A stretch of DNA of 21,103 nucleotides from an uncultured Acidobacteriota bacterium (GCA_963828465.1 CAWHEU010000016.1:1-21103); one strand, 5' to 3'; positions 662-14,430 are shown, numbered from the stretch's first letter. Notes: generated from the letters alone by a model not told the origin. A program made the numbers and translations.

Positions 662-1748
662 GTGCGCATCGAGAAGCTGGAGATCCATCCGATCACCATG
701 ACTCTGCGCAGCCCGATCCCGATGTCCAACGGAGTGATCGAGAGCACGGGAACGTCCTCGTGAAGCTGGTCACCGACGACGGAGCGACCGGATGGGGTGA
801 GGGAGTGGAGGCGCCGTCGCTGACCCACCAGCGCCAAGCGGACATCGTGTCAGACCTCGAGATGCTCACTCCGCTGGTCATCGGGACCGACCCGATGCGG
901 CGCAACGAGGTCTGGGTCGATTGACCCAGGCCCGTCCGTCGGCGGCGACTGCCATCGGCGCCATCGATATCGCCCTTCACGACCTCGGGGGCAAGGTGCT
1001 CGGCGTTCCCGCCTCCCAACTTCTCGGCGGTGCAGTCCGAGACAGGATTCCTGCGCTGACGCTCGTCGGAAGTGGGGATCCGTCGGCCGACGCCGAGAAG
1101 CTGGCGGACCATCGTGAACAGGGATTCCATTGGTTCAAGATCAAGCTGGGGATGGCCGCCCCTGAATCCGAGTTGGCCACCCTCGCCAAAGCTGCCGAAC
1201 TGGTTGGCGAGGAGGGCGTCGTCTGTGGCGACGTCAACGAAGCGTGGACCGAAGATGAGGCTAGGTCATTTCTGGATCAGGTCGACCCGGACCGCGTCCG
1301 CTTCATCGAACAGCCGGTGCCCCGCTCGGACAGGGATGCCCTGATCCGGCTGGCGGAATCGGTACCCGTAAAGCTCTGCGCCGACGAGAGCGCTGGGAGC
1401 CTGCAGGCTGTAGTGGGTTTCGCAGGCACGCCCGTTGGCGGGGTGAGTCTCAAGCTGATCAAACACGGCGGGATGACCGGGGTGATGAGGGGCGCGGCTA
1501 TCTGCTCGGCCGGTGGGCTCGGGATCAACCTCGCCGGCAAGGTGATCGAGTCCAGTGTGTCGGCGGCGGCGAACCTCCACTGTGCAGCGGCGATGAATGC
1601 TGTCGATTTCGGGTGCAGCCCGGCCGATCAAGGTGTCGTGCAGGACGTCACCGAATCCCCCATCACCGTCACCAACGGCCAATTCGATATCCCCACCGCC
1701 CCGGGCCTCGGCATCGAGGTCGACGAGGGGATGGTGCGCCGCCTCTAG
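662..1748 (+). CDS. Enolase superfamily enzyme, muconate cycloisomerase/dipeptide epimerase (MLE) subgroup (two frameshifts as sequenced)
   Basis: GTG at 662 gives MRIEKLEIHPITMTLRSPIPMSNG. A missing G near 750 leads into NVLVKLVTDDGATGWGEG, and a missing G near 915 joins ORF 921..1748. That ORF has AIDIALHDL, FKIKLG, DVN, IEQP, ADES, a Lys at beta-6 (LKLIKHGG) and PGLGIEVD. Confidence 0.82.
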
Positions 1749-5606: not shown

Positions 5607-6926
5607 CTAGCTGCTGACCGAGGCCAGGATCGACTCGCCCACCTCGGGCTGGTCGGCGGCAATGAATGCCAGCCGGCCATCATCGAGGACCTCGACCCAC
5701 GCGTAGTCCTCCTCCGCCACCGCCGTCAGGGCGTAGTCGAGCAAGGCTGCCCTCAACTCTTCTGTGTCGCGATCTGTGTCGCCTTCGAAGAGGATGAGCA
5801 AAGCTGCGTTCTGGCCATCGAACCACTGTGCGTAGTAGTCGCCTCCCCAACCATCGGCCGCGTCGACGCCTACTTCCTCCCCGAGGATCTGATCGATCAT
5901 GATCCTGAACCCGAATTCGCCCCATACCGACTCACGCTCGAGCTCGTAACCGGGGACCGACGGCGCTGTCGCCTCGAGTGACTTGGGGAGGTCCCTCTCG
6001 TAATCACTTGGCGTGATGATCTGCTCAGTCGATCCAGGAAGGCCGGGCATCTCGGCATAAGCCCCGTTCACCGTCGTCCACTGGTCCTGGAGGTAGTTGG
6101 CCTGCACCCATGCCAGGCCCGAGTCGTAGGGGAAAATCAACGAGTCCTGGATGAAGGCAGGGGCGGAGTCGAGCGCTGTGGTGTCCACGTCCAGGGCCTC
6201 GGAGAAGAACTCGCCAAGCTCTTCCTGGGTGAGAGTCTGCAGGTAGAGAAGCTCGGCCATGCTCGCGTCACCCTCGATGAGGGCCTGATAGGCCGAGGCC
6301 TCGTCGAGACGGTCCTCGTCGAGCATCGCCGTGTAGCTCGTGTGGAAATCGAGTTGATCATCGGTCAATGCATGAGTGAGCTCGTGGATCATGGTTCCCC
6401 GCTGGACGACGCTGAACCCCTCCTCCCGCATCGGCACAACAAGCTCACCGGTTTCCCCGTCGTAATAGCCGGCGACCTGCTCTCCATAGAGCTCGGTGAG
6501 GAGAGACTGGAGATTGACCTCGGCGTCGAGCAGGCCGAGGAGCTTGTACAGGGCCTCGTCTGCCGGGAAGTCTTCGGATTCGTCCTCGATCTGCGTGCGA
6601 ACGCGGTCCTCGAGCTCCTGCTCGGTGACGATCACGATGGTCGGTGGCTCCTGGAAGCGAAGCCCGCGGATCTCTTCGGTCGTGCGGACCAGCGCCAGCA
6701 GCTCGTCCTGGACTTCCGCAGGGAGAGCATCGATGCCGGGAAGCTCCTCCCAGGTCGGCTCGGCAAGCGTTGTCGTGGTCGAGGGGGCCTCGCCACCTGT
6801 CGTCGTGCTGCCCTCAGGTGCGCTCGACGTCGCCGATGGCGCCGTGGTGGTTGTGTCGGCGGTGGTCGATGTGCAGGCGCCGAGAATCAGGGCGCACGCG
6901 AGGATCATGGCAAGACGGCGGGTCAC
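5607..6926 (-). CDS. Acidic lipoprotein with a HExxH zinc-metallopeptidase-like domain
   Basis: Signal peptide MTRRLAMILACALILGA-C (lipobox), a Thr/Ser-rich linker, AGYYD, HELTHAL followed by ALIEGDA, FPYDSG and AADGWGGD. TAATCT lies 7 nt upstream of GTG 6926. Confidence 0.8.
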   Translation of the reverse strand: MTRRLAMILACALILGACTSTTADTTTTAPSATSSAPEGSTTTGGEAPSTTTTLAEPTWEELPGIDALPAEVQDELLALVRTTEEIRGLRFQEPPTIVIVTEQELEDRVRTQIEDESEDFPADEALYKLLGLLDAEVNLQSLLTELYGEQVAGYYDGETGELVVPMREEGFSVVQRGTMIHELTHALTDDQLDFHTSYTAMLDEDRLDEASAYQALIEGDASMAELLYLQTLTQEELGEFFSEALDVDTTALDSAPAFIQDSLIFPYDSGLAWVQANYLQDQWTTVNGAYAEMPGLPGSTEQIITPSDYERDLPKSLEATAPSVPGYELERESVWGEFGFRIMIDQILGEEVGVDAADGWGGDYYAQWFDGQNAALLILFEGDTDRDTEELRAALLDYALTAVAEEDYAWVEVLDDGRLAFIAADQPEVGESILASVSS

Positions 6927-7013
6927 GACAGTCAGATTATCGGCGCCAAATCGCTAGATCGTGAGTGGCGTTCAACCGAACCGGTGGATGGGTACCCTCG
7001 CCGTCGATGGTGG

Positions 7014-7025
7014 AAAGGAGGTGAT
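7014..7025 (+). promoter_or_regulatory. Strong Shine-Dalgarno site for the FDH catalytic gene
   Basis: AAAGGAGGTGAT is complementary to the 16S rRNA 3' end; GGAGG is 5 nt before GTG 7027. A candidate -10 TACCCT lies at 6993-6998. Confidence 0.75.
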
Positions 7026-7026
7026 T

Positions 7027-8946
7027 GTGAAGCGAAGCTACGCACGTCTCACCGAGCCGCTGGTGCGGGACAACGGATCGCTGCGCCCGGCGAGCATGGA
7101 CGAGGCCATGGAGCGGGTGGCCACAGGGCTCTCTCCCCACATGGGTGACGCCTTCGGGTTGTTCAGCTGCTCGAAGGGGACCAACGAGATGAACTACATG
7201 GCACAGAAGTTCGCCCGTGTGGTCATGGCCAGCAACAACATCGATAGCTGCAACCGCACTTGACACGCCCCTTCTGTCGCCGGTCTGGCGACTGTGTTCG
7301 GGGCTGGTGGCGGCACTAGCTCCTATCGAGAGATGGAAGACACAGACCTCATCGTCCTGTGGGGGTCGAACGCGCGCGAAGCGCATCCGATCTTCTTCCA
7401 CCACGTACTGAAGGCCATCAACAAGGGCGCCAGGATGTTCGCGGTCGACCCGAGACGAACCTCCTCGGCGGCATGGGCCGACGTCTGGCTCGGCATCGAC
7501 GTCGGGTCGGACATCGCACTTTCCAACACCTTGGCGTGGGAGATCATCAAATCGGACCTCTACCACGAACATTTCGTCGCCCACGCGACGTCGAGTTTCG
7601 ACGAGTACGTCGAGTCGGTGGAGCACTGGACACTGCAACGCGGTCAGGAGGTGACCGGTGTCCCCGCCGAGGCGATCAAGCAACTGGCCCACGAGTACGC
7701 CACCGCCCCCACCGCCCAGGTGTGCTGGACCCTGGGCATCACAGAGCATCACAACGCCACCGACAACGTCCTTGCCCTGATCAATCTCGCCCTTCTCTGC
7801 GGACATGTCGGGCGCTACGGGTCGGGGGTGGTCCCGATACGCGGCCAGAACAACGTCCAGGGCGGCGGCGACATGGGTGCCCTCCCCAATCGGCTCCCCG
7901 GATTCCAGCTGGTGGCCGACCCGGACCTGCGAGGGAAGTTCGAGACGGCCTGGGGATGCACGATCCCGCACAGGCCCGGCAAGCACATCAGCCTCATGCA
8001 CGAGGCAATGGATGAAGGCGAACTCCGTGCTCTCTACGTCATCGGCGAGAACCCTCTGCAATCCGAAGCCGATGCCCAGCAAATGGAGCGGAGACTGACC
8101 GGTCTCGATTTCATGGTGGTTCAAGACCTCTTCCTGACGGCCACGGCGGAGATAGCCGATGTCGTGCTGCCGGCCGCCGGGTGGGGTGAGGTCGAGGGGA
8201 CATTCACCTCGAGCGAGCGGAGAGTGCAGCGGGTGCGGAGGGCGATCGATCCGCCGGGCGAGGCCAGGGATGACCTCGAGCTCATGAGCATGGTGGCGCG
8301 GGCGATGGGCCACGATTGGCCCACGCCCACGGCCGAGGAGGCGTGGGACGAGTTGCGCAGTCTCTCGCCGATGCACGGCGGTATGACCTATGAGCGACTC
8401 GACGAGTCGGGCGGGCTGCAATGGCCGTGCCCGACCGAGGACCATCCCGGCACGCTGTTCCTCCATGGTCGGCTCTGGGAGGAGGAGACGGGGCCGAAAG
8501 CACCCTTCTCGGTTGTCGATTGGGTGCCACCGGTCGACGCCCTCAGCGAGGAGTTCCCGCTGCGTCTCACCACGGGCAGACGTCTCGACTCGTACAACAC
8601 GGGGGTGCAGAGCGGCCGCTACCCCTCTCCCCGGCGCATCCATGGCGTGCTCGACCTCTCCCCGGAGGACGCGGAGGCACTAGGCGTCCATGAGGGTGAG
8701 ACGGTGAGAGTGGTCTCCCGACGGGGCAATCTGGAGGCCCCGGTCCGGCTCGACCGCTCGCTCCGACCCGGATTGGCCTTCATGGCCGTCCATTTCCCCG
8801 ACGACACCGATGTGAACCAGCTCACCATCGACGCCTGGGACCCCAAGTCGGGAACCGCCGAGTTCAAGGCAACGGCGGTGCGGATCGAGACGCTGGTGTC
8901 CAGTGCACCGACCGGCAACGTTCGGCGCGCTCAGGACGGCCAGTGA
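7027..8946 (+). CDS. fdhF: Selenocysteine-containing Mo/W-bisPGD formate dehydrogenase catalytic subunit (639 aa, Sec79; lacks the N-terminal Fe-S domain)
   Basis: ORFs 6961..7263 and 7294..8946 are in one frame, separated only by TGA 7261-7263. The reading is NIDSCNRT-U-HAPSVAGL (E. coli FdhF: DCCARV-U-HGPSVAGL). Also present are the catalytic Arg in PIRGQNNVQG, ADVVLPAA, GTFTSSERRVQ, LTTGR and AEFKATAV. Confidence 0.93.
7261..7298 (+). promoter_or_regulatory. Bacterial SECIS element
   Basis: UGA, then 12 nt, then stem GTCGCC (7276-7281), loop GGTCT and GGCGAC (7287-7292). A lower stem pairs GACAC (7262-7266) with GTGTT (7294-7298). Loop G and U fall at +23/+24 from the U of UGA, as in the E. 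coli fdhF SECIS. Confidence 0.88.
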
Positions 8947-9063
8947 CGCCGCTGGCTGCGTCCTCGTCCTCGACGAACGGACAGGTGCGCCTTCGTCCTG
9001 CGTCCTTGCCAACGCCGCCCCTGACTCGCCCTGAGCATCACCAACGTCACCGGCCAGAGCACT
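8902..9063 (-). repeat. 162-bp palindromic MITE/RPE-like element
   Basis: Imperfect inverted arms of about 55 bp (8902-8956 and 9008-9063) with AGTGC...GCACT ends. The interior has a small hairpin and four copies of CGTCCT. Confidence 0.75.
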
Positions 9064-9067
9064 ACTA

Positions 9068-10891
9068 ATGGACATCCGCGCCCTGCTCGAAGGACCGACA
9101 GACGTCGAGCGAGCGGCCGTCGACGATCTGCTGGGACCGCCGGAGTCGGGCTGGGAGGGCGGTCATTTCACCGGGCTCGACGGCCACGTCGCCTACGGAG
9201 GGCATGCCGCCCGGGAACGACGCAACCTATTGCTTCCCGCCTTGCACGCGGTGCAGGACGCAGCGGGGTCGGTGAGCAAGGGAGCGCTGGGTTACATCTC
9301 CGAGAGACTCACAGTGCCCCCCGCCGAGGCCTACGGGGTTGCCACGTTCTACGCCCTGATCAACACAGGGTCACGGTCGCAGACTCTGATCCACGTCTGC
9401 GACGACATCGTCTGCGCTCGTTATGGAGCCGACGAGATCAAGCGATCGCTCGAGCATGAGCTGGGCCCGTCCGGTGCCACCGATCCCGAGATGAGTTGGG
9501 CGCCGAGCCCCTGTCTCGGTCAATGCGACCGGGCGCCGGCGGCCCTCATCCACGCTGCCGGTGCCGGCTACCGCAATGTGGCACCTGCCGACGCCGCCGT
9601 GCTCACCCGTCTTGCCTTCGAGGAGCTGCCCACAGGTCTAATTCACCAGGGTCGAGAGGAGCTGCGTCTTCTCCGTCGGATCGGACATGTCGACCCGGAG
9701 AGCATCGATTCGTATCAGAGCAGCGGCGGGTATGCCGGTTTGGCAAAGGCGATCGACATGGGGAGGGACGGTCTGATCGCCGCCCTGGATGAATCGGGTC
9801 TGAAGGGTCGCGGTGGTGCAGCGTTCCCCATCGGCATCAAGTGGCGTGGAGTGGCCGACGCCGAGGGTGATGTGAAATACGTCATCGCCAACGGCGACGA
9901 ATCGGAGCCGGGCACCTTCAAGGACCGGATCCTGATGGAGGGCGACCCATTCGCCGTCATCGAGGCGATGACTATCGCCGGGTTCGCCACCGGGGCCACC
10001 AGGGGATTCGCCTACGTCAGAGGCGAGTACCCGGTGGCGGAGCGTCGTCTGGTCCACGCCATCGATCAGGCCAGAAACGCAGGTCTCCTCGGGGCCGATG
10101 TTGCCGAGGGCGGTTTCGAATTCGACATCGAGGTCAGACGCGGGGCTGGTGCCTACATCTGTGGTGAGGAGACTGCCTTGTTCGCCTCGATCGAGGGCGA
10201 GCGAGGTGAGCCGAGGCAGAAGCCACCCTTCCCCACCGAGAAAGGGGTGTTTGGCAAGCCGACCTCGGTGAACAACATCGAGACCCTGGTGGCAGTCCTG
10301 GCCGTGCTCGAGATGGGGGCTGCCGAGTTTGCCGCCATCGGAACGGAGCGCTCAACCGGTCCCAAGCTCTTCTGCATCTCTGGCGATGTGACCAGACCCG
10401 GGCTCTATGAGGTCCCGTTCGGGACCACCCTGCGCCAACTGATGACGCTCGCCGGTGGTGTGCGTGATGGCGCCGGAGTTGGGGCGGTCCTGGTCGGCGG
10501 CGCCGCCGGGAGTTTCGTCGACGCCGGCACTCTCGACATGGAACTCACCTTCGAGGGGGCGGCCGCCGCTCAGACCGGCCTCGGCTCCGGAGCAGTGATC
10601 GTCTTCGACGACACCACCGACTTTGCTCCGGTGCTTCGCCGAATCGCCCAGTTCTTCAGGGATGAGTCCTGCGGTCAGTGTGTTCCGTGCCGAATCGGCA
10701 CAGTCAGACAGGAGGAGTCCCTGGCTCGACTCGCCGCCGACAGCCCGATGGGTGGCATCGCCGACGAGCGACAGCGGCTCGACGACCTGGCCCGGGTGAT
10801 GACCGACGCCTCGATCTGCGGCCTTGGTCAGACCGCCGCATCCGCGGTCCAATCCGCATTCCGCCTCAGTCTCCCGGGGACGGCCCGATGA
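9068..10891 (+). CDS. Fused NuoE-NuoF (FdsG-FdsB-like) NAD/FMN-binding diaphorase subunit of FDH
   Basis: NuoE part: LLPALHAVQ, GVATFY, CDDIVC and CLGQC. NuoF part: GLKGRGGAAFP, NGDESEPGTFKDR, GAGAYICGEETAL, ESCGQCVPCRIG and SICGLG. Confidence 0.93.
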   Translation: MDIRALLEGPTDVERAAVDDLLGPPESGWEGGHFTGLDGHVAYGGHAARERRNLLLPALHAVQDAAGSVSKGALGYISERLTVPPAEAYGVATFYALINTGSRSQTLIHVCDDIVCARYGADEIKRSLEHELGPSGATDPEMSWAPSPCLGQCDRAPAALIHAAGAGYRNVAPADAAVLTRLAFEELPTGLIHQGREELRLLRRIGHVDPESIDSYQSSGGYAGLAKAIDMGRDGLIAALDESGLKGRGGAAFPIGIKWRGVADAEGDVKYVIANGDESEPGTFKDRILMEGDPFAVIEAMTIAGFATGATRGFAYVRGEYPVAERRLVHAIDQARNAGLLGADVAEGGFEFDIEVRRGAGAYICGEETALFASIEGERGEPRQKPPFPTEKGVFGKPTSVNNIETLVAVLAVLEMGAAEFAAIGTERSTGPKLFCISGDVTRPGLYEVPFGTTLRQLMTLAGGVRDGAGVGAVLVGGAAGSFVDAGTLDMELTFEGAAAAQTGLGSGAVIVFDDTTDFAPVLRRIAQFFRDESCGQCVPCRIGTVRQEESLARLAADSPMGGIADERQRLDDLARVMTDASICGLGQTAASAVQSAFRLSLPGTAR

Positions 10892-11814
10892 CGATCACGA
10901 GCGAAACGGTTTCCACGATCTCAGCCCGGGTCGATGGCGCCGAGATCGAAATCGCCCAGGGCTCCACCGTTCTCGACGCCTGCCGTCAGGCGGGTGCGGA
11001 CATCCCGACCCTTTGTTACGGGCCGACCATGACCGCGGCCAACGCCTGCCGGGTCTGCGTGGTGGAGATCGAAGGTTCCCGCACCCTCGTGCCGTCCTGC
11101 TCCCGCAAACTCGAAGACGGGATGGAGATCACGACTGGCTCGGACCGGGCCCGGCACAGCCGTCGCCTGGTGATGGAGCTGCTGGGCTCGGCGTCGGAGT
11201 TGGACCGAGCCGGACAGCGGCTCGATCGGTGGATGACCGAAGCGGGAGCCCACCCCGAGCGCTTTGGCAACCCTGGGCCGGAGTCGCCACGTGAGGCGCC
11301 GGCGCCGGGACACCATCACCTGGCCGATCCCAACTTCGCTGCCACGGTGGCCGAGCCGGCCAAGGTCGAGGACGAGCTCTATGTGCGTGACTACGGCCGA
11401 TGCATCCTCTGTTATCGATGTGTCGATGCCTGCGGGGTCGAGCACCAGAACACCTTCGCCATAGCCGTGGCGGGGCGCGGCTTCGACGCACGGATATCCA
11501 CCGAGTTCGACGTCGTCTTGCCCGATTCGGCCTGCGTCTACTGCGGCAACTGCATCGCCGTCTGTCCCACCGGGGCCCTGGCCGGGAAGATCGAGTGGGA
11601 CATGAGGGAGGCCGGGATCTGGGACGAATCGCGCCAGGACGTCACACGCACCATCTGCTCTTACTGCGGGGTGGGCTGCAATCTCGATCTCCACACCCAG
11701 GACGGTCGCATCGTGAGCGTCACCTCCCCGCACGATCACGACGTGACGCTGGGCAACCTCTGCATCAAGGGTCGGTTCGGTTGGATGTACGTCAGCAGCG
11801 GCCGTGGCGTCTGA
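10888..11814 (+). CDS. FDH iron-sulfur subunit: [2Fe-2S] + 2x[4Fe-4S] + molybdopterin-oxidoreductase Fe4S4 domain (N-terminal part of FdsA)
   Basis: ATG 10888 overlaps the upstream stop (ATGA). Motifs: IPTLC..ACRVC..VPSC; CILCYRCVDAC; CVYCGNCIAVCPTGAL; and C-terminal TICSYCGVGC...NLCIKGRFG. Confidence 0.92.
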   Translation: MTITSETVSTISARVDGAEIEIAQGSTVLDACRQAGADIPTLCYGPTMTAANACRVCVVEIEGSRTLVPSCSRKLEDGMEITTGSDRARHSRRLVMELLGSASELDRAGQRLDRWMTEAGAHPERFGNPGPESPREAPAPGHHHLADPNFAATVAEPAKVEDELYVRDYGRCILCYRCVDACGVEHQNTFAIAVAGRGFDARISTEFDVVLPDSACVYCGNCIAVCPTGALAGKIEWDMREAGIWDESRQDVTRTICSYCGVGCNLDLHTQDGRIVSVTSPHDHDVTLGNLCIKGRFGWMYVSSGRGV

Positions 11815-12661
11815 GGCGGTCAGCACCCGTTCGGTGATCCGTGTCAGGGGGAAGGCTGCGACCGTCGATGACAATCTCGTCGTCGAGGAGCCGGTCGAGT
11901 TCCGACTGGACGGGACCGCCCTCGCGGTGGTCATGCGCACCCCGGGCAACGACGCCGAGCTCGCTCTCGGCTTCGCCATCACCGAGGGAATCGTCAACGG
12001 GCCTGACGAAGTGGCCTCGGTGGTAGATCTGGGAGAAGGGCGATGGGATGTCAGGCTGGCTGAAGGGATCACCGTTGATCCGTCCCGGTTCCAGCGCAAC
12101 TTCTACGCCACGTCCTCGTGCGGCGTCTGTGGCAAGGCATCGATAGACGCCATCCGGGTCGCCGGGTCGGTACCACCTCATGGACCGGTGGTCACCCCGG
12201 ATGTCCTACTCGGATTGCCGGGTCGTCTCATCGAGGAGCAGCACGCGTTTCGCTCGACGGGTGGGATCCACGCCGCGGCCGCGTTCGAGCCGGACGGGAA
12301 CCTGGTGGCGGTGCGGGAGGACGTCGGCAGACACAATGCGGTGGACAAGCTGGTCGGGCATCTCGCCACCACCCGATGGCCGATAGATCAGCTCGGCTTG
12401 CTGGTCTCGGGCAGGGTTTCGTTCGAGATCGTCCAGAAGGCGGCGGTGGCCGGCCTTTCTCTGGTCTGTGGGGTCTCCGCAGCCTCCAGCCTCGCCCTCG
12501 ACCTCGCAGAAGAATTCCATATGACCGTGATCGGGTTCCTCCGCGACAAAGGCTTCACGATCTACACCGGCGAGGAACGAGTACATCTCCTCCCCCAGGA
12601 GCGCAGCGACGTTGGGGGAGGTGGCGCCGAAGGCGACGGAGGGGGTTCCGGAGAGGCCTAG
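11804..12661 (+). CDS. fdhD: Formate dehydrogenase accessory sulfurtransferase FdhD
   Basis: [63 protein letters not shown] and IGFLR. Confidence 0.96.
12588..12645. repeat. REP-like potential intrastrand triplex element
   Basis: CCTCCCCCA (12589-12597) pairs with TGGGGGAGG (12613-12621). A CGCC-GAA-GGCG hairpin follows (12625-12635), then GGAGGGGG (12638-12645), the mirror image of the purine arm. Confidence 0.7.
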
Positions 12662-14430
12662 TGCAGCCCGATCACCTCACCGGCCTCGTCGATGTCGACT
12701 TTCATGAATCCCGGAGTAGCCCCCAGGCCGGGCATCGTGCTCATCTCACCAAGGAGGGGGTAGATGAACCCGGCCCCGACCGACGCCCTTACTTCCCGCA
12801 CCGTGAGCTCATACCCGTGCGGAGCACCTTTCAATGAAGGGTCGTCGCTGATCGAAAGGTGGGTCTTGGCCATGCAGATCGGGAGATATCCGAATCCCGA
12901 CCGCTCGAAATCGGCGATCTGGGTCTCCGCCTGTTGTGTGTACTCGACCGACCCTGCCCGATAGATCTTGGTGGCGATGGTCTCGATTTTGTCCTTGATC
13001 GAGCGGTCTAGCGGGTAGAGGAAGTCGAAATGGGTCGGCTGGCTGCTGGCCTCGACCACCGCGCTGGCCAGGTCGCGCGCCCCCTCGCCACCCCGGGCGT
13101 GATGCTCGGTGGTCACTGCGGCGAAAGCACCGGCCTCCTCTGCCGACCGACGCACGAGCTCGAGCTCGTGCTCGCTGTCCGTGGGAAACCGGTTGATGGC
13201 CACGACGACCGGCACGCCGAAGCCGGCGGCGATGTCGAGATGCGCCTTCAGGTTGGCCATGCCGGCCCGAAGAAGCGGCAGGTTCTCTTCGGTGTATGCG
13301 CTCGCCAGCGGGCGACCGGCCACGACCTTCGGCCCTCCCCCATGCGTCTTCAGGGCTCGCACCGTCGCCACCATCACGACACAATCCGGCCGCAGTCCGG
13401 ACACGCGGCACTTGATGTCGAAGAACTTCTCCATGCCCATGTCGGCACCGAACCCGGACTCGGTCACCACGAAATCACCGAGATGAAGCGCCATCCGGTC
13501 AGCCAGGATCGAGGAGTTCCCGTGGGCGATGTTGGCGAAAGGCCCTGCGTGCACGAAGGCAGGCTGACCCTCCAGCGTCTGCATGAGATTGGGATGAAGT
13601 GTGTCCTTCATGAGGACCGTGACGGCGCCACCCACACCCAGGTCGTCGAGGGTGATGGGGGCACCGTCCTTGGACAGTCCCATGACGACCCGGCCCACTC
13701 GTTCACGCAGGTTGCGTAGCGCCGACGGATAGTCGGCGCCATCGGCGAGGGCGAGGATCGCCATCAGCTCGCTCGCAACCGAGATGTCGTACCCGCTCTC
13801 TCGGGGACGACCGTCGACCGCCCCACCCAGACCGATCACGACGTGGCGAAGGGCCCGGTCATTGACATCGACGACCCGACGCCAGCTGATCCGGTCGGGA
13901 TCGATGGCGAGCCGCTTCAACCCGAGCGCATTCAGGGCTTCGGTGGTGAGACGACCCTCGTGATACCAGCGGGCGTCGATGGCGGCTGCCACCAGATTGT
14001 GCGCTACCGAGATGGCGTGCATGTCCCCGGTGAGATGGAGGTTGAACTCTTCCATCGGGACCACCTGGCTGTACCCGCCGCCGGCGGCGCCCCCTTTGAT
14101 CCCGAAGGTGGGACCCATGCTCGGCTGTCGGATGCAGGCGATCGATCGGTGGCCTAACGCCCCCAGACCCTGGACCAGGCCTACGGTGGTCGTGGTCTTG
14201 CCCTCACCGAGCGGGGTTGGAGTGACGGCCGTGACGACCACGTACTTGCCCATGGGATTGCCGGCGATCCGGCGCAGGGCATCGAGGTGGATTTTCGCCT
14301 TGGTGGCGCCGTAGGGGATGACCTCCTCGTCGTCCAGACCGAGGTCCCGCGCCACGTCGCTGATCGGCTTGAGTTTGGCGGTGCGGGCGATCTCGAGGTC
14401 GCTCGCCATGCGGGGTAGCGGGTTGGACAT
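12658..14430 (-). CDS. fhs: Formate--tetrahydrofolate ligase
   Basis: [73 protein letters not shown] and TMPGL. Confidence 0.97.

Follow-up and report, generated by a model that had tools for sequence, protein, structure and literature searches.

The nicotinamide adenine dinucleotide (NAD)-dependent metal formate dehydrogenases (FDHs) that have been studied, namely Methylorubrum extorquens FDH1 (MeFDH1), C. necator FdsDABG and R. capsulatus FdsABGD, are all cysteine (Cys) enzymes with a single large subunit (table of a 2026 review, PMC13397495). FdsA has been described as a cytoplasmic FDH fused with a module of the iron-only-hydrogenase type (PMC10100899), and the proximal [4Fe-4S] cluster has been called ubiquitous in the FDH catalytic subunit, with Lys44 of FdhH being essential (PMC12176258). 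In R. capsulatus FDH the direct chain runs from bis-MGD (bis-molybdopterin guanine dinucleotide) through clusters A1, A2, A3, A5 and B6 to flavin mononucleotide (FMN), and cluster A4 (His117, Cys121, Cys124, Cys130) lies off this path at the FdsA-FdsA interface (PMC7171172). Here we describe an operon of an uncultured Acidobacteriota bacterium in which the counterpart of FdsA is encoded as two separate chains and the [4Fe-4S] domain proximal to the molybdenum (Mo) site is found on a different protein from the catalytic subunit. The operon lies in a stretch of 21,103 nucleotides (GCA_963828465.1 CAWHEU010000016.1:1-21103, hereafter the window, with positions counted from its first letter), and four of its genes probably specify one soluble three-chain formate dehydrogenase and its maturation factor.

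Re-reading of the window sequence confirmed the coordinates and gene content that had been proposed for positions 7027-11814. The first gene (7027..8946, + strand) encodes a 639-amino-acid (aa) catalytic subunit of the Mo or tungsten (W) bis-pyranopterin guanine dinucleotide (bisPGD) type, identified by Pfam, TIGR01591 and PDB alignments. Its GTG start at 7027 follows a Shine-Dalgarno-like sequence, GGAAAGGAGG, which can be read directly at 7012..7021 (+ strand), and the stop is reached at 8946 when the TGA at 7261-7263 is read through. The protein begins with MKRSYARLTEPLVR. Two domains, Molybdopterin (residues 7-424, 2.2e-63) and Molydop_binding (residues 512-616, 2.9e-27), and no other were detected by Pfam; the chain thus contains no Molybdop_Fe4S4 domain by Pfam, and it has no CxxCxxxC motif. 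Residues 7-621 align to residues 308-932 of R. capsulatus FdsA, alignments to FdhF-type PDB chains begin at chain residues ~60-64, and among the PDB matches listed there is no chain that begins where the Mo subunit begins. Pfam and the PDB alignments therefore agree with the original prediction that this gene starts past the Fe4S4 segment and lacks a cluster motif. The in-frame translation of the Shine-Dalgarno-like sequence (GGKEVI and similar) is found again shortly before the start in many related loci. The active-site motifs TUHAPS (U79-H80) and PIRGQ (R272) are both present, and U-H and R-G-Q motifs are those of class I FDHs (PMC8808070). The NCBIfam profile TIGR01591 (Fdh-alpha) matches the Mo subunit from profile positions 52 to 672 with 629.8 bits, against a cut-off of 666.25, and profile positions 1-50 are matched by the Fe-S chain instead (46.2 bits). 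The N-terminal [4Fe-4S] domain and lysine that Fdh-alpha places in the same chain are accordingly absent from the Mo subunit.

The missing domain is found at the C-terminus of a 308-aa Fe-S subunit encoded two genes downstream (10888..11814, + strand; Pfam and alignment to FdsA). Pfam matches in this chain run from Fer2_4 (residues 10-84) through two Fer4 motifs (residues ~167-231) to Molybdop_Fe4S4, which comes last at residues 252-303 (11641..11796, + strand; 3.6e-20, also matched in six-frame translation). By motif, the subunit would hold a [2Fe-2S], two [4Fe-4S] and the Mo-proximal [4Fe-4S] cluster, the last with ligands Cys257, Cys260, Cys264 and Cys292 and with Lys294 beside it. The location of the domain and its lysine, and its presence in the Fe-S gene but not in the Mo gene, were as predicted. 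Residues 11-303 of the Fe-S subunit align to R. capsulatus FdsA 25-304; since this chain ends at FdsA residue 304 and the Mo subunit begins at 308, the split falls at FdsA residues ~305-307. A six-frame search of the whole window genome, a draft of 29 contigs (92% complete, 4.8% contamination), found just two Molybdop_Fe4S4 domains, the one at 11641-11796 and a second on contig 13, which lies in cis within the chain of a different molybdoenzyme. The search thus revealed no Fe4S4 domain hidden upstream of the Mo gene, where only 100 bp separate it from an abutting opposite-strand gene. The contig 13 domain (12265-12399, locus L079) belongs to a molybdopterin oxidoreductase of unclear type, which scores far below all curated cut-offs and matches FDH-alpha, PhsA, NasC and QrcB weakly. 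AlphaFold2 applied to the window's Fe-S subunit alone, with a 38-row alignment, gave a model too poor to use (mean predicted local distance difference test (pLDDT) 51.2, predicted template modelling score (pTM) 0.48).

Compared with the FdsABG(D) enzymes of R. capsulatus and C. necator (6TG9/6TGA), the window encodes the same set of modules, including NuoF-like and NuoE-like parts and an FdhD/FdsC-type factor, but FdsA is one chain there and two chains here, its back half being encoded first, the diaphorase next and its front half last. None of the on-path clusters A1, A2, A3 and A5 has been lost: their ligands, together with the lysine beside A1, are invariant in all 38 split-type Fe-S subunits that were aligned, with Lys294 and the cysteines of the four clusters conserved throughout. 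The sole cluster missing relative to R. capsulatus FdsA is the A4 equivalent, whose His/Cys3 ligands are absent in pairwise alignments with 6tg9 and 9wxb and missing in 38/38 of the aligned split subunits. Joining the two chains had been expected to rebuild a canonical FdsA; both do align along it, but the A4 site is not restored. The label FdsA-type likewise held for the module content, but the Mo subunit itself is not closest to proteobacterial FdsA; the solved structures that it matches best are FdhF-type chains (459-495 bits). A 21-residue insert with a conserved P-G-H-H sequence occupies the region that replaces the lost A4 cluster (Fe-S residues ~130-150, window ~11275-11340); it is seen in the Acidimicrobiia-type sequences of the alignment and not in the Streptomyces-type ones.

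Between the two halves lies a gene for a 607-aa NuoE-NuoF fusion (9068..10891, + strand; Pfam and alignment to the MeFDH1 beta subunit). Pfam detects 2Fe-2S_thioredx (residues 50-173), Complex1_51K (241-410), SLBB and NADH_4Fe-4S (522-599), and a thioredoxin-like [2Fe-2S] site, an FMN/NAD(H) site and a [4Fe-4S] site are indicated by motifs, the cysteine motifs being read in the sequence. Residues 50-598 align to MeFDH1 beta (7e5z_B). The Fe-S gene starts inside the stop of the fusion gene (ATGA) and is itself overlapped by 11 nt by a gene for an FdhD/FdsC-type sulfurtransferase within the operon (11804..12661, + strand; FdhD-NarQ, 3.5e-66), which carries an SSCGVCGK loop and scores 269.5 bits with NF001943 (cut-off 269). 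FdsD (PF11390) was not found in the window genome nor in two other genomes with split operons; in a positive control, the same search found PF11390 beside FdsA in a canonical genome. The order catalytic (Sec, for selenocysteine), NuoEF, Fe-S, fdhD and the lack of an fdsD gene therefore stand as originally described.

The split family is conserved and widespread. A scan with one genome per species returned 58 loci, 56 of the split type and 2 of other families. The order Mo, NuoEF, Fe-S is found in all 47 loci that show all three genes, nine more split-type loci being cut by contig ends, and the same split and order that had been proposed for a survey thus recurred throughout; one of the 47, locus L066, has a 295-nt gap before its Fe-S gene. 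Where there is room downstream, FdhD follows directly in 50/51 loci (the exception is L068), and a formate-tetrahydrofolate (THF) ligase gene is present in 30/51. The titles of the loci are mostly those of Acidimicrobiia, with Gemmatimonadaceae, Anaeromyxobacteraceae, Thermomicrobiales and Candidatus Eisenbacteria also named. In an even sample of 401 Actinomycetota genomes, 54 gave a match at E <= 1e-40, 45 of them at >=57% identity with the window genome counted, and in a sample of 151 genomes from the phylum that holds L066 there were 69 matches, 29 at >=58% identity. Twenty of the places from the Actinomycetota sample were fetched, of which 14 proved to be split-type, all with the same order, and 6 were fused or other forms; four weaker matches fetched from the L066 phylum are fused Sec-type operons. 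At least 8000 database proteins of comparable length are related to the Fe-S protein, and the best 120 of these (261-392 aa) all end in Molybdop_Fe4S4. Cys-type homologues bear the names of Streptomyces, Nonomuraea, Amycolatopsis, Herbidospora, Thermopolyspora and others, and one Streptomyces-named cluster of Mo subunits has 2251 members, which bears out the earlier mention of Cys-type operons in Streptomyces. Both halves show clear sequence conservation. A 620-aa relative without Fe4S4 (P0237) was considered as a second split form and rejected, the Cys/Sec motif being missing.

A quick maximum-likelihood tree of 81 Mo domains places the 19 split rows in one clade (Shimodaira-Hasegawa-like approximate likelihood-ratio test (SH-aLRT) 100, stem 0.54). 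Its nearest rows are FdhF-type (supports of only 88-91), in a tree with a backbone support of 0 on which the labels 'FdsA-type' and 'FdhF-type' are scattered, needing 18 and 10 changes, and two Cys-type rows nest inside the Sec clade. The 19 split rows also fall into a single clade (100) in a quick tree built from 72 Fe-S modules, where they are placed amid the N-terminal modules that fused FdsA-type proteins carry (98). The split form has a single origin, and the trees, both quick and unrooted, fit a single fission of a fused gene.

That codon 79 of the Mo gene (in-frame TGA, 7261..7263, + strand, read directly) is read as selenocysteine is well supported. The window genome encodes selD, a tRNA-Sec (72 bits; anticodon tca by ARAGORN) and selA and selB, which lie next to each other. 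A hairpin resembling a selenocysteine insertion sequence (SECIS) is found by RNA folding and covariation at 7262..7298 (+ strand), with a lower stem that pairs 7262-7267 with 7293-7298, an upper stem that pairs 7276-7281 with 7287-7292, and a GGUCU loop at 7282-7286. The loop is invariant in 48/48 Sec-type sequences, four of which are fused-type, and presumably resembles, in its GGUC, the SECIS of E. coli fdhF. Positions in the upper stem are 99% paired, with changes on both sides in 3/6 pairs (7 cells); 90.8% of cells are paired, compared with 27-49% in slid controls, and the observed covariation score was reached by 0/500 shuffles. Relatedness is not taken into account by the shuffles, so that this evidence rests chiefly on the compensatory pairs. 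The aligned codon is TGA in 58/60 assessable split-type loci and TGC in the other 2, and these two Cys-type loci have the same residues around the hairpin region, encoded by other codons. Covariation and Sec machinery together uphold the earlier assignment of selenocysteine to the catalytic subunit. Gene callers cut the Sec-type Mo subunits at the UGA, and the closest database representatives of the Mo protein are 540-550 aa long, starting after residue 89 of the window's protein.

The fit between the two halves was modelled with the Cys-type Mo and Fe-S chains of locus L081, which are 64% and 57% identical to those of the window. The co-fold scored 0.93, against 0.01 for the best of 3 controls, a mark that is reached by 58/80 solved complexes and by 2/110 mismatched pairs. 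Three runs shared >=90% of contacts, with a partner pLDDT of >=79. Confident contacts fall mainly in residues 231-286 of the L081 Fe-S chain, which correspond to the Fe4S4 domain, and on the Mo side include the N-terminal RLTxPL stretch and the R-G-Q stretch. Since fused homologues have already been solved, a pass of this kind speaks for likeness to them and not for binding.

Independent reads cover most of the window, in the form of contigs from soil metagenome runs. Fifteen of the 20 listed sequencing runs contain under a fifth of the sampled words; in run X1, 12/34 aligned contigs are >=99% alike, and the best-matching run may be the window's own sample. An RNA-library run, X20, yielded a 628-nt contig that is ~97% alike over 6941-7570, spans the start codon and keeps the TGA; its contigs represent stretches of the Mo and fdhD genes and one stretch of the NuoEF gene only, the gaps between them being uninformative. 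The operon is interrupted by a repeat insertion of ~161 nt between the Mo and NuoEF genes (8903..9064, no strand assigned), recognised by comparison with relatives. It gives the Mo subunit an altered C-terminal tail and removes the overlap of stop and start that is seen in 4 close relatives, from which the repeat is absent. A DNA contig of run X3 skips 8897-9068. A search with 8898-9067 found four copies in the genome (100%, 99%, 88% and a partial one at 83%), and the ends of the repeat are inverted repeats. The repeat is not part of the enzyme.

The operon has a convergent neighbour, a formate-tetrahydrofolate ligase gene (12658..14430, - strand; FTHFS, 4.4e-249), and a divergent one, a 439-aa gene (5607..6926, - strand) whose match to DUF6782, a putative metallopeptidase family, is weak and under the Pfam cut-off; this gene is kept beside the operon in the closest relatives only. 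Elsewhere in the window, the neighbouring open reading frames at 84-659 and 921-1748 (+ strand) both match the C-terminal domain of the enolase superfamily (MR_MLE); they may represent a pair of paralogues, or a single gene that is interrupted in the draft assembly. Scans of 6800-12900 gave 0 sigma-70-like promoter sites and one terminator-like site, which is not above shuffle level, and there were 0 Rfam matches at gathering thresholds in the whole window.

We propose that formate would be oxidised at the Mo- or W-bisPGD site of the 639-aa subunit (Sec79, His80, Arg272), with electrons leaving through the [4Fe-4S] cluster and Lys294 at the C-terminal end of the docked 308-aa Fe-S protein. From there they would pass to the two ferredoxin-type [4Fe-4S] clusters and the [2Fe-2S] cluster of the same protein, then on to the NuoE-NuoF fusion, to reduce NAD(P)+ there by way of its [4Fe-4S] cluster and FMN. 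The formate reaction is presumably reversible, and FdhD would provide the sulfurated cofactor. With the lysine and every ligand of A1, A2, A3 and A5 kept, the path from metal to flavin can be complete, its first electron step passing from one subunit to the next. The quaternary structure may well be a different one, given that A4 and FdsD have been lost, and to judge by the conserved formate-THF ligase gene next door, the enzyme may serve to oxidise formate that is set free from the folate one-carbon pool. For the split enzyme we infer chain binding, electron path, acceptor, metal and activity, and its NAD linkage and catalysis are predictions from its domains. Several points weigh against this proposal. 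The Mo subunit falls 36 bits below the NCBIfam FDH cut-off of TIGR01591. For NarG and DmsA it is reported that the cofactor can go in only once the proximal cluster has been inserted (PMC5123574), and a cluster-free apo-Mo subunit would therefore need a different order of maturation. The co-fold is of a homologue, and the halves of split genes tend to pass such modelling by likeness. No biochemical data on any member of the split family were found in the literature. The repeat between the Mo and NuoEF genes might affect expression in this strain, and the RNA-library contigs, in which DNA may be present, are only a hint of expression and not proof of transcription.

The enzyme might be real and yet not a simple NAD+-reducing formate oxidiser, acting instead as a physiological CO2 reductase that feeds the formate-THF ligase, using NADP+ or another acceptor, or working by electron bifurcation in the manner of Bfu/HydABC. 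The presence of the ligase gene in 30/51 loci also fits CO2 reduction into the folate pool, and CO2-reducing enzymes from acetogens are among the Sec FDHs tabulated in PMC10100899. Of the solved structures, HydB subunits of bifurcating hydrogenases match the NuoE-NuoF fusion best, but the alignment to HydB 7q4v_B stops at residue 518 of that chain's 599, the fusion extends no further than NuoF does, and Pfam finds no Fer4 domain after NADH_4Fe-4S, that is, none of the extra C-terminal ferredoxin domain of HydB-type chains. Loss of the His-ligated cluster from the Fe-S subunit also counts against these alternatives. Among the named holders of the split form, Streptomyces, Nonomuraea and Amycolatopsis are aerobic bacteria that are not known as acetogens, which likewise speaks against them; Wood-Ljungdahl genes were not searched for. 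We regard these alternatives, taken together, as unlikely.

It is very improbable that the Mo subunit belongs to a different enzyme from the Fe-S/NuoEF proteins, the Fe4S4 domain being a relic like N7 of complex I and the Mo protein working alone or with another partner, perhaps on another substrate. Such relics exist, N7 of Thermus complex I being a disconnected remnant of the same domain (PMC7171172), and the Mo subunit's score below the FDH cut-off also speaks for this reading. Yet the four cysteines and the lysine of the Fe4S4 domain are invariant in 38/38 sequences, a second free Fe4S4 domain is absent from the genome, the active-site motifs of FDH are preserved, and the co-fold passes its controls. 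The three genes also stand next to each other with overlapping or nearly overlapping stops and starts in 47/47 loci, with FdhD next in 50/51. That the split is an artefact or a recent break, through misassembly, a frameshift or pseudogene formation, is barely conceivable and is refuted by the survey; the draft state and contamination of the assembly and the repeat inserted inside the operon would allow for it, but the start, the Fe-S C-terminal end and the gene order are shared by 47/47 loci from separate assemblies under several phylum labels, 14 further loci from the phylum sample show the same layout, more than 2,000 database proteins fall into one Streptomyces-named cluster, and both halves are clearly conserved.

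Set beside other described systems, the three-chain formate dehydrogenase of the window is an uncharacterised variant that would work like an FdsABG/MeFDH1-type enzyme and departs from two hallmarks of FdsA and FDH-alpha, the single chain and the proximal cluster in cis. Relative to FdsABG(D), it lacks A4, no FdsD was found, Sec replaces Cys, and NuoE and NuoF are fused. In the last respect it is more like MeFDH1 (7E5Z, 7VW6), in which NuoE and NuoF are likewise fused as the beta subunit, than like FdsB plus FdsG; the Fdh1A subunit of MeFDH1, however, is a single chain of ~990 aa with all clusters and the pterin domain, and the enzyme uses Cys and tungsten (PMC13397495). FdhF-type enzymes (E. 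coli FdhH, 1AA6; FdhF of the hydrogen-dependent CO2 reductase HDCR, 7QV7; the alpha subunit of F420-FDH) share the Sec/Cys-His and Arg motifs, but keep Fe4S4 in cis, whereas the split Mo subunit does not. A naturally split catalytic polypeptide is found in an FDH relative, formylmethanofuran dehydrogenase FwdB/FwdD (PMC7171172), but that split removes the C-terminal cap domain and FwdB keeps its Fe4S4 domain (5t5i_B aligns from residue 50). Fused Sec operons of FdsA type also occur in the same two phyla (L084, L092-L094, L100-L103); they have a NuoEF-like gene, the same Sec position and the same GGUCU loop; there NuoEF is followed by a single Fe-S plus Mo chain, and the proteins are 35-43% identical to those of the window. 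In six-frame translation, the open frames of these loci end at the UGA after ~360-410 aa. No description of the split architecture was found in the openly searchable literature or in the PDB, subscription journals and supplements lying outside the search, and no solved chain among the matches listed starts at this point, in keeping with the earlier statement that no characterisation was known. In the accessible portions, PMC8808070 gives no split form, and PMC10100899 lists families that have lost the N-terminal cluster, does not use the word 'split', and screened candidates for the [4Fe-4S] motif. The candidate locus tags SCO6559-6562 matched no papers.

A further idea, of low probability, is that the gene was divided, and Mo placed first in the order, as an adaptation to Sec decoding and modular maturation. 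If so, failed UGA decoding in the fused Sec enzymes would leave a fragment of ~370-400 aa with all Fe-S clusters, which could bind the diaphorase and form dead-end complexes that oxidise NADH, whereas in the split form the same failure would give a 78-residue peptide only and leave the Fe-S module intact. The Mo(Sec) protein would then be the first known Mo/W-bisPGD catalytic subunit that acquires its cofactor with no proximal cluster in its own chain, to dock afterwards as a module that can be exchanged. The predominance of Sec (58/60 split loci) and the position of the two Cys rows within the Sec clade speak for this idea, and the persistence of fused Sec-type operons in the same phyla and the abundance of the Cys form among Streptomyces-named proteins count against it.

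By placing the cluster and lysine on another chain, the split family would put directly to the test both the rule, followed in reviews (PMC12176258), that cluster and lysine belong to the catalytic subunit in every metal FDH, and the view that the cluster is inserted first during maturation. It also bears on how formate metabolism is read from genomes. In databases the Mo protein is named 'molybdopterin oxidoreductase family protein' and the Fe-S protein '2Fe-2S iron-sulfur cluster-binding protein'; given these generic names, the sub-cut-off score, truncation at the UGA and screening by cluster motif, formate oxidation is probably under-counted as a capacity of soil Actinomycetota and of the second phylum sampled. 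The NAD-dependent FDHs tabulated in PMC13397495 are all Cys types, and a selenocysteine-containing FDH with a probable NAD linkage would be of interest where CO2 is to be reduced, particularly should its hosts be aerobic.

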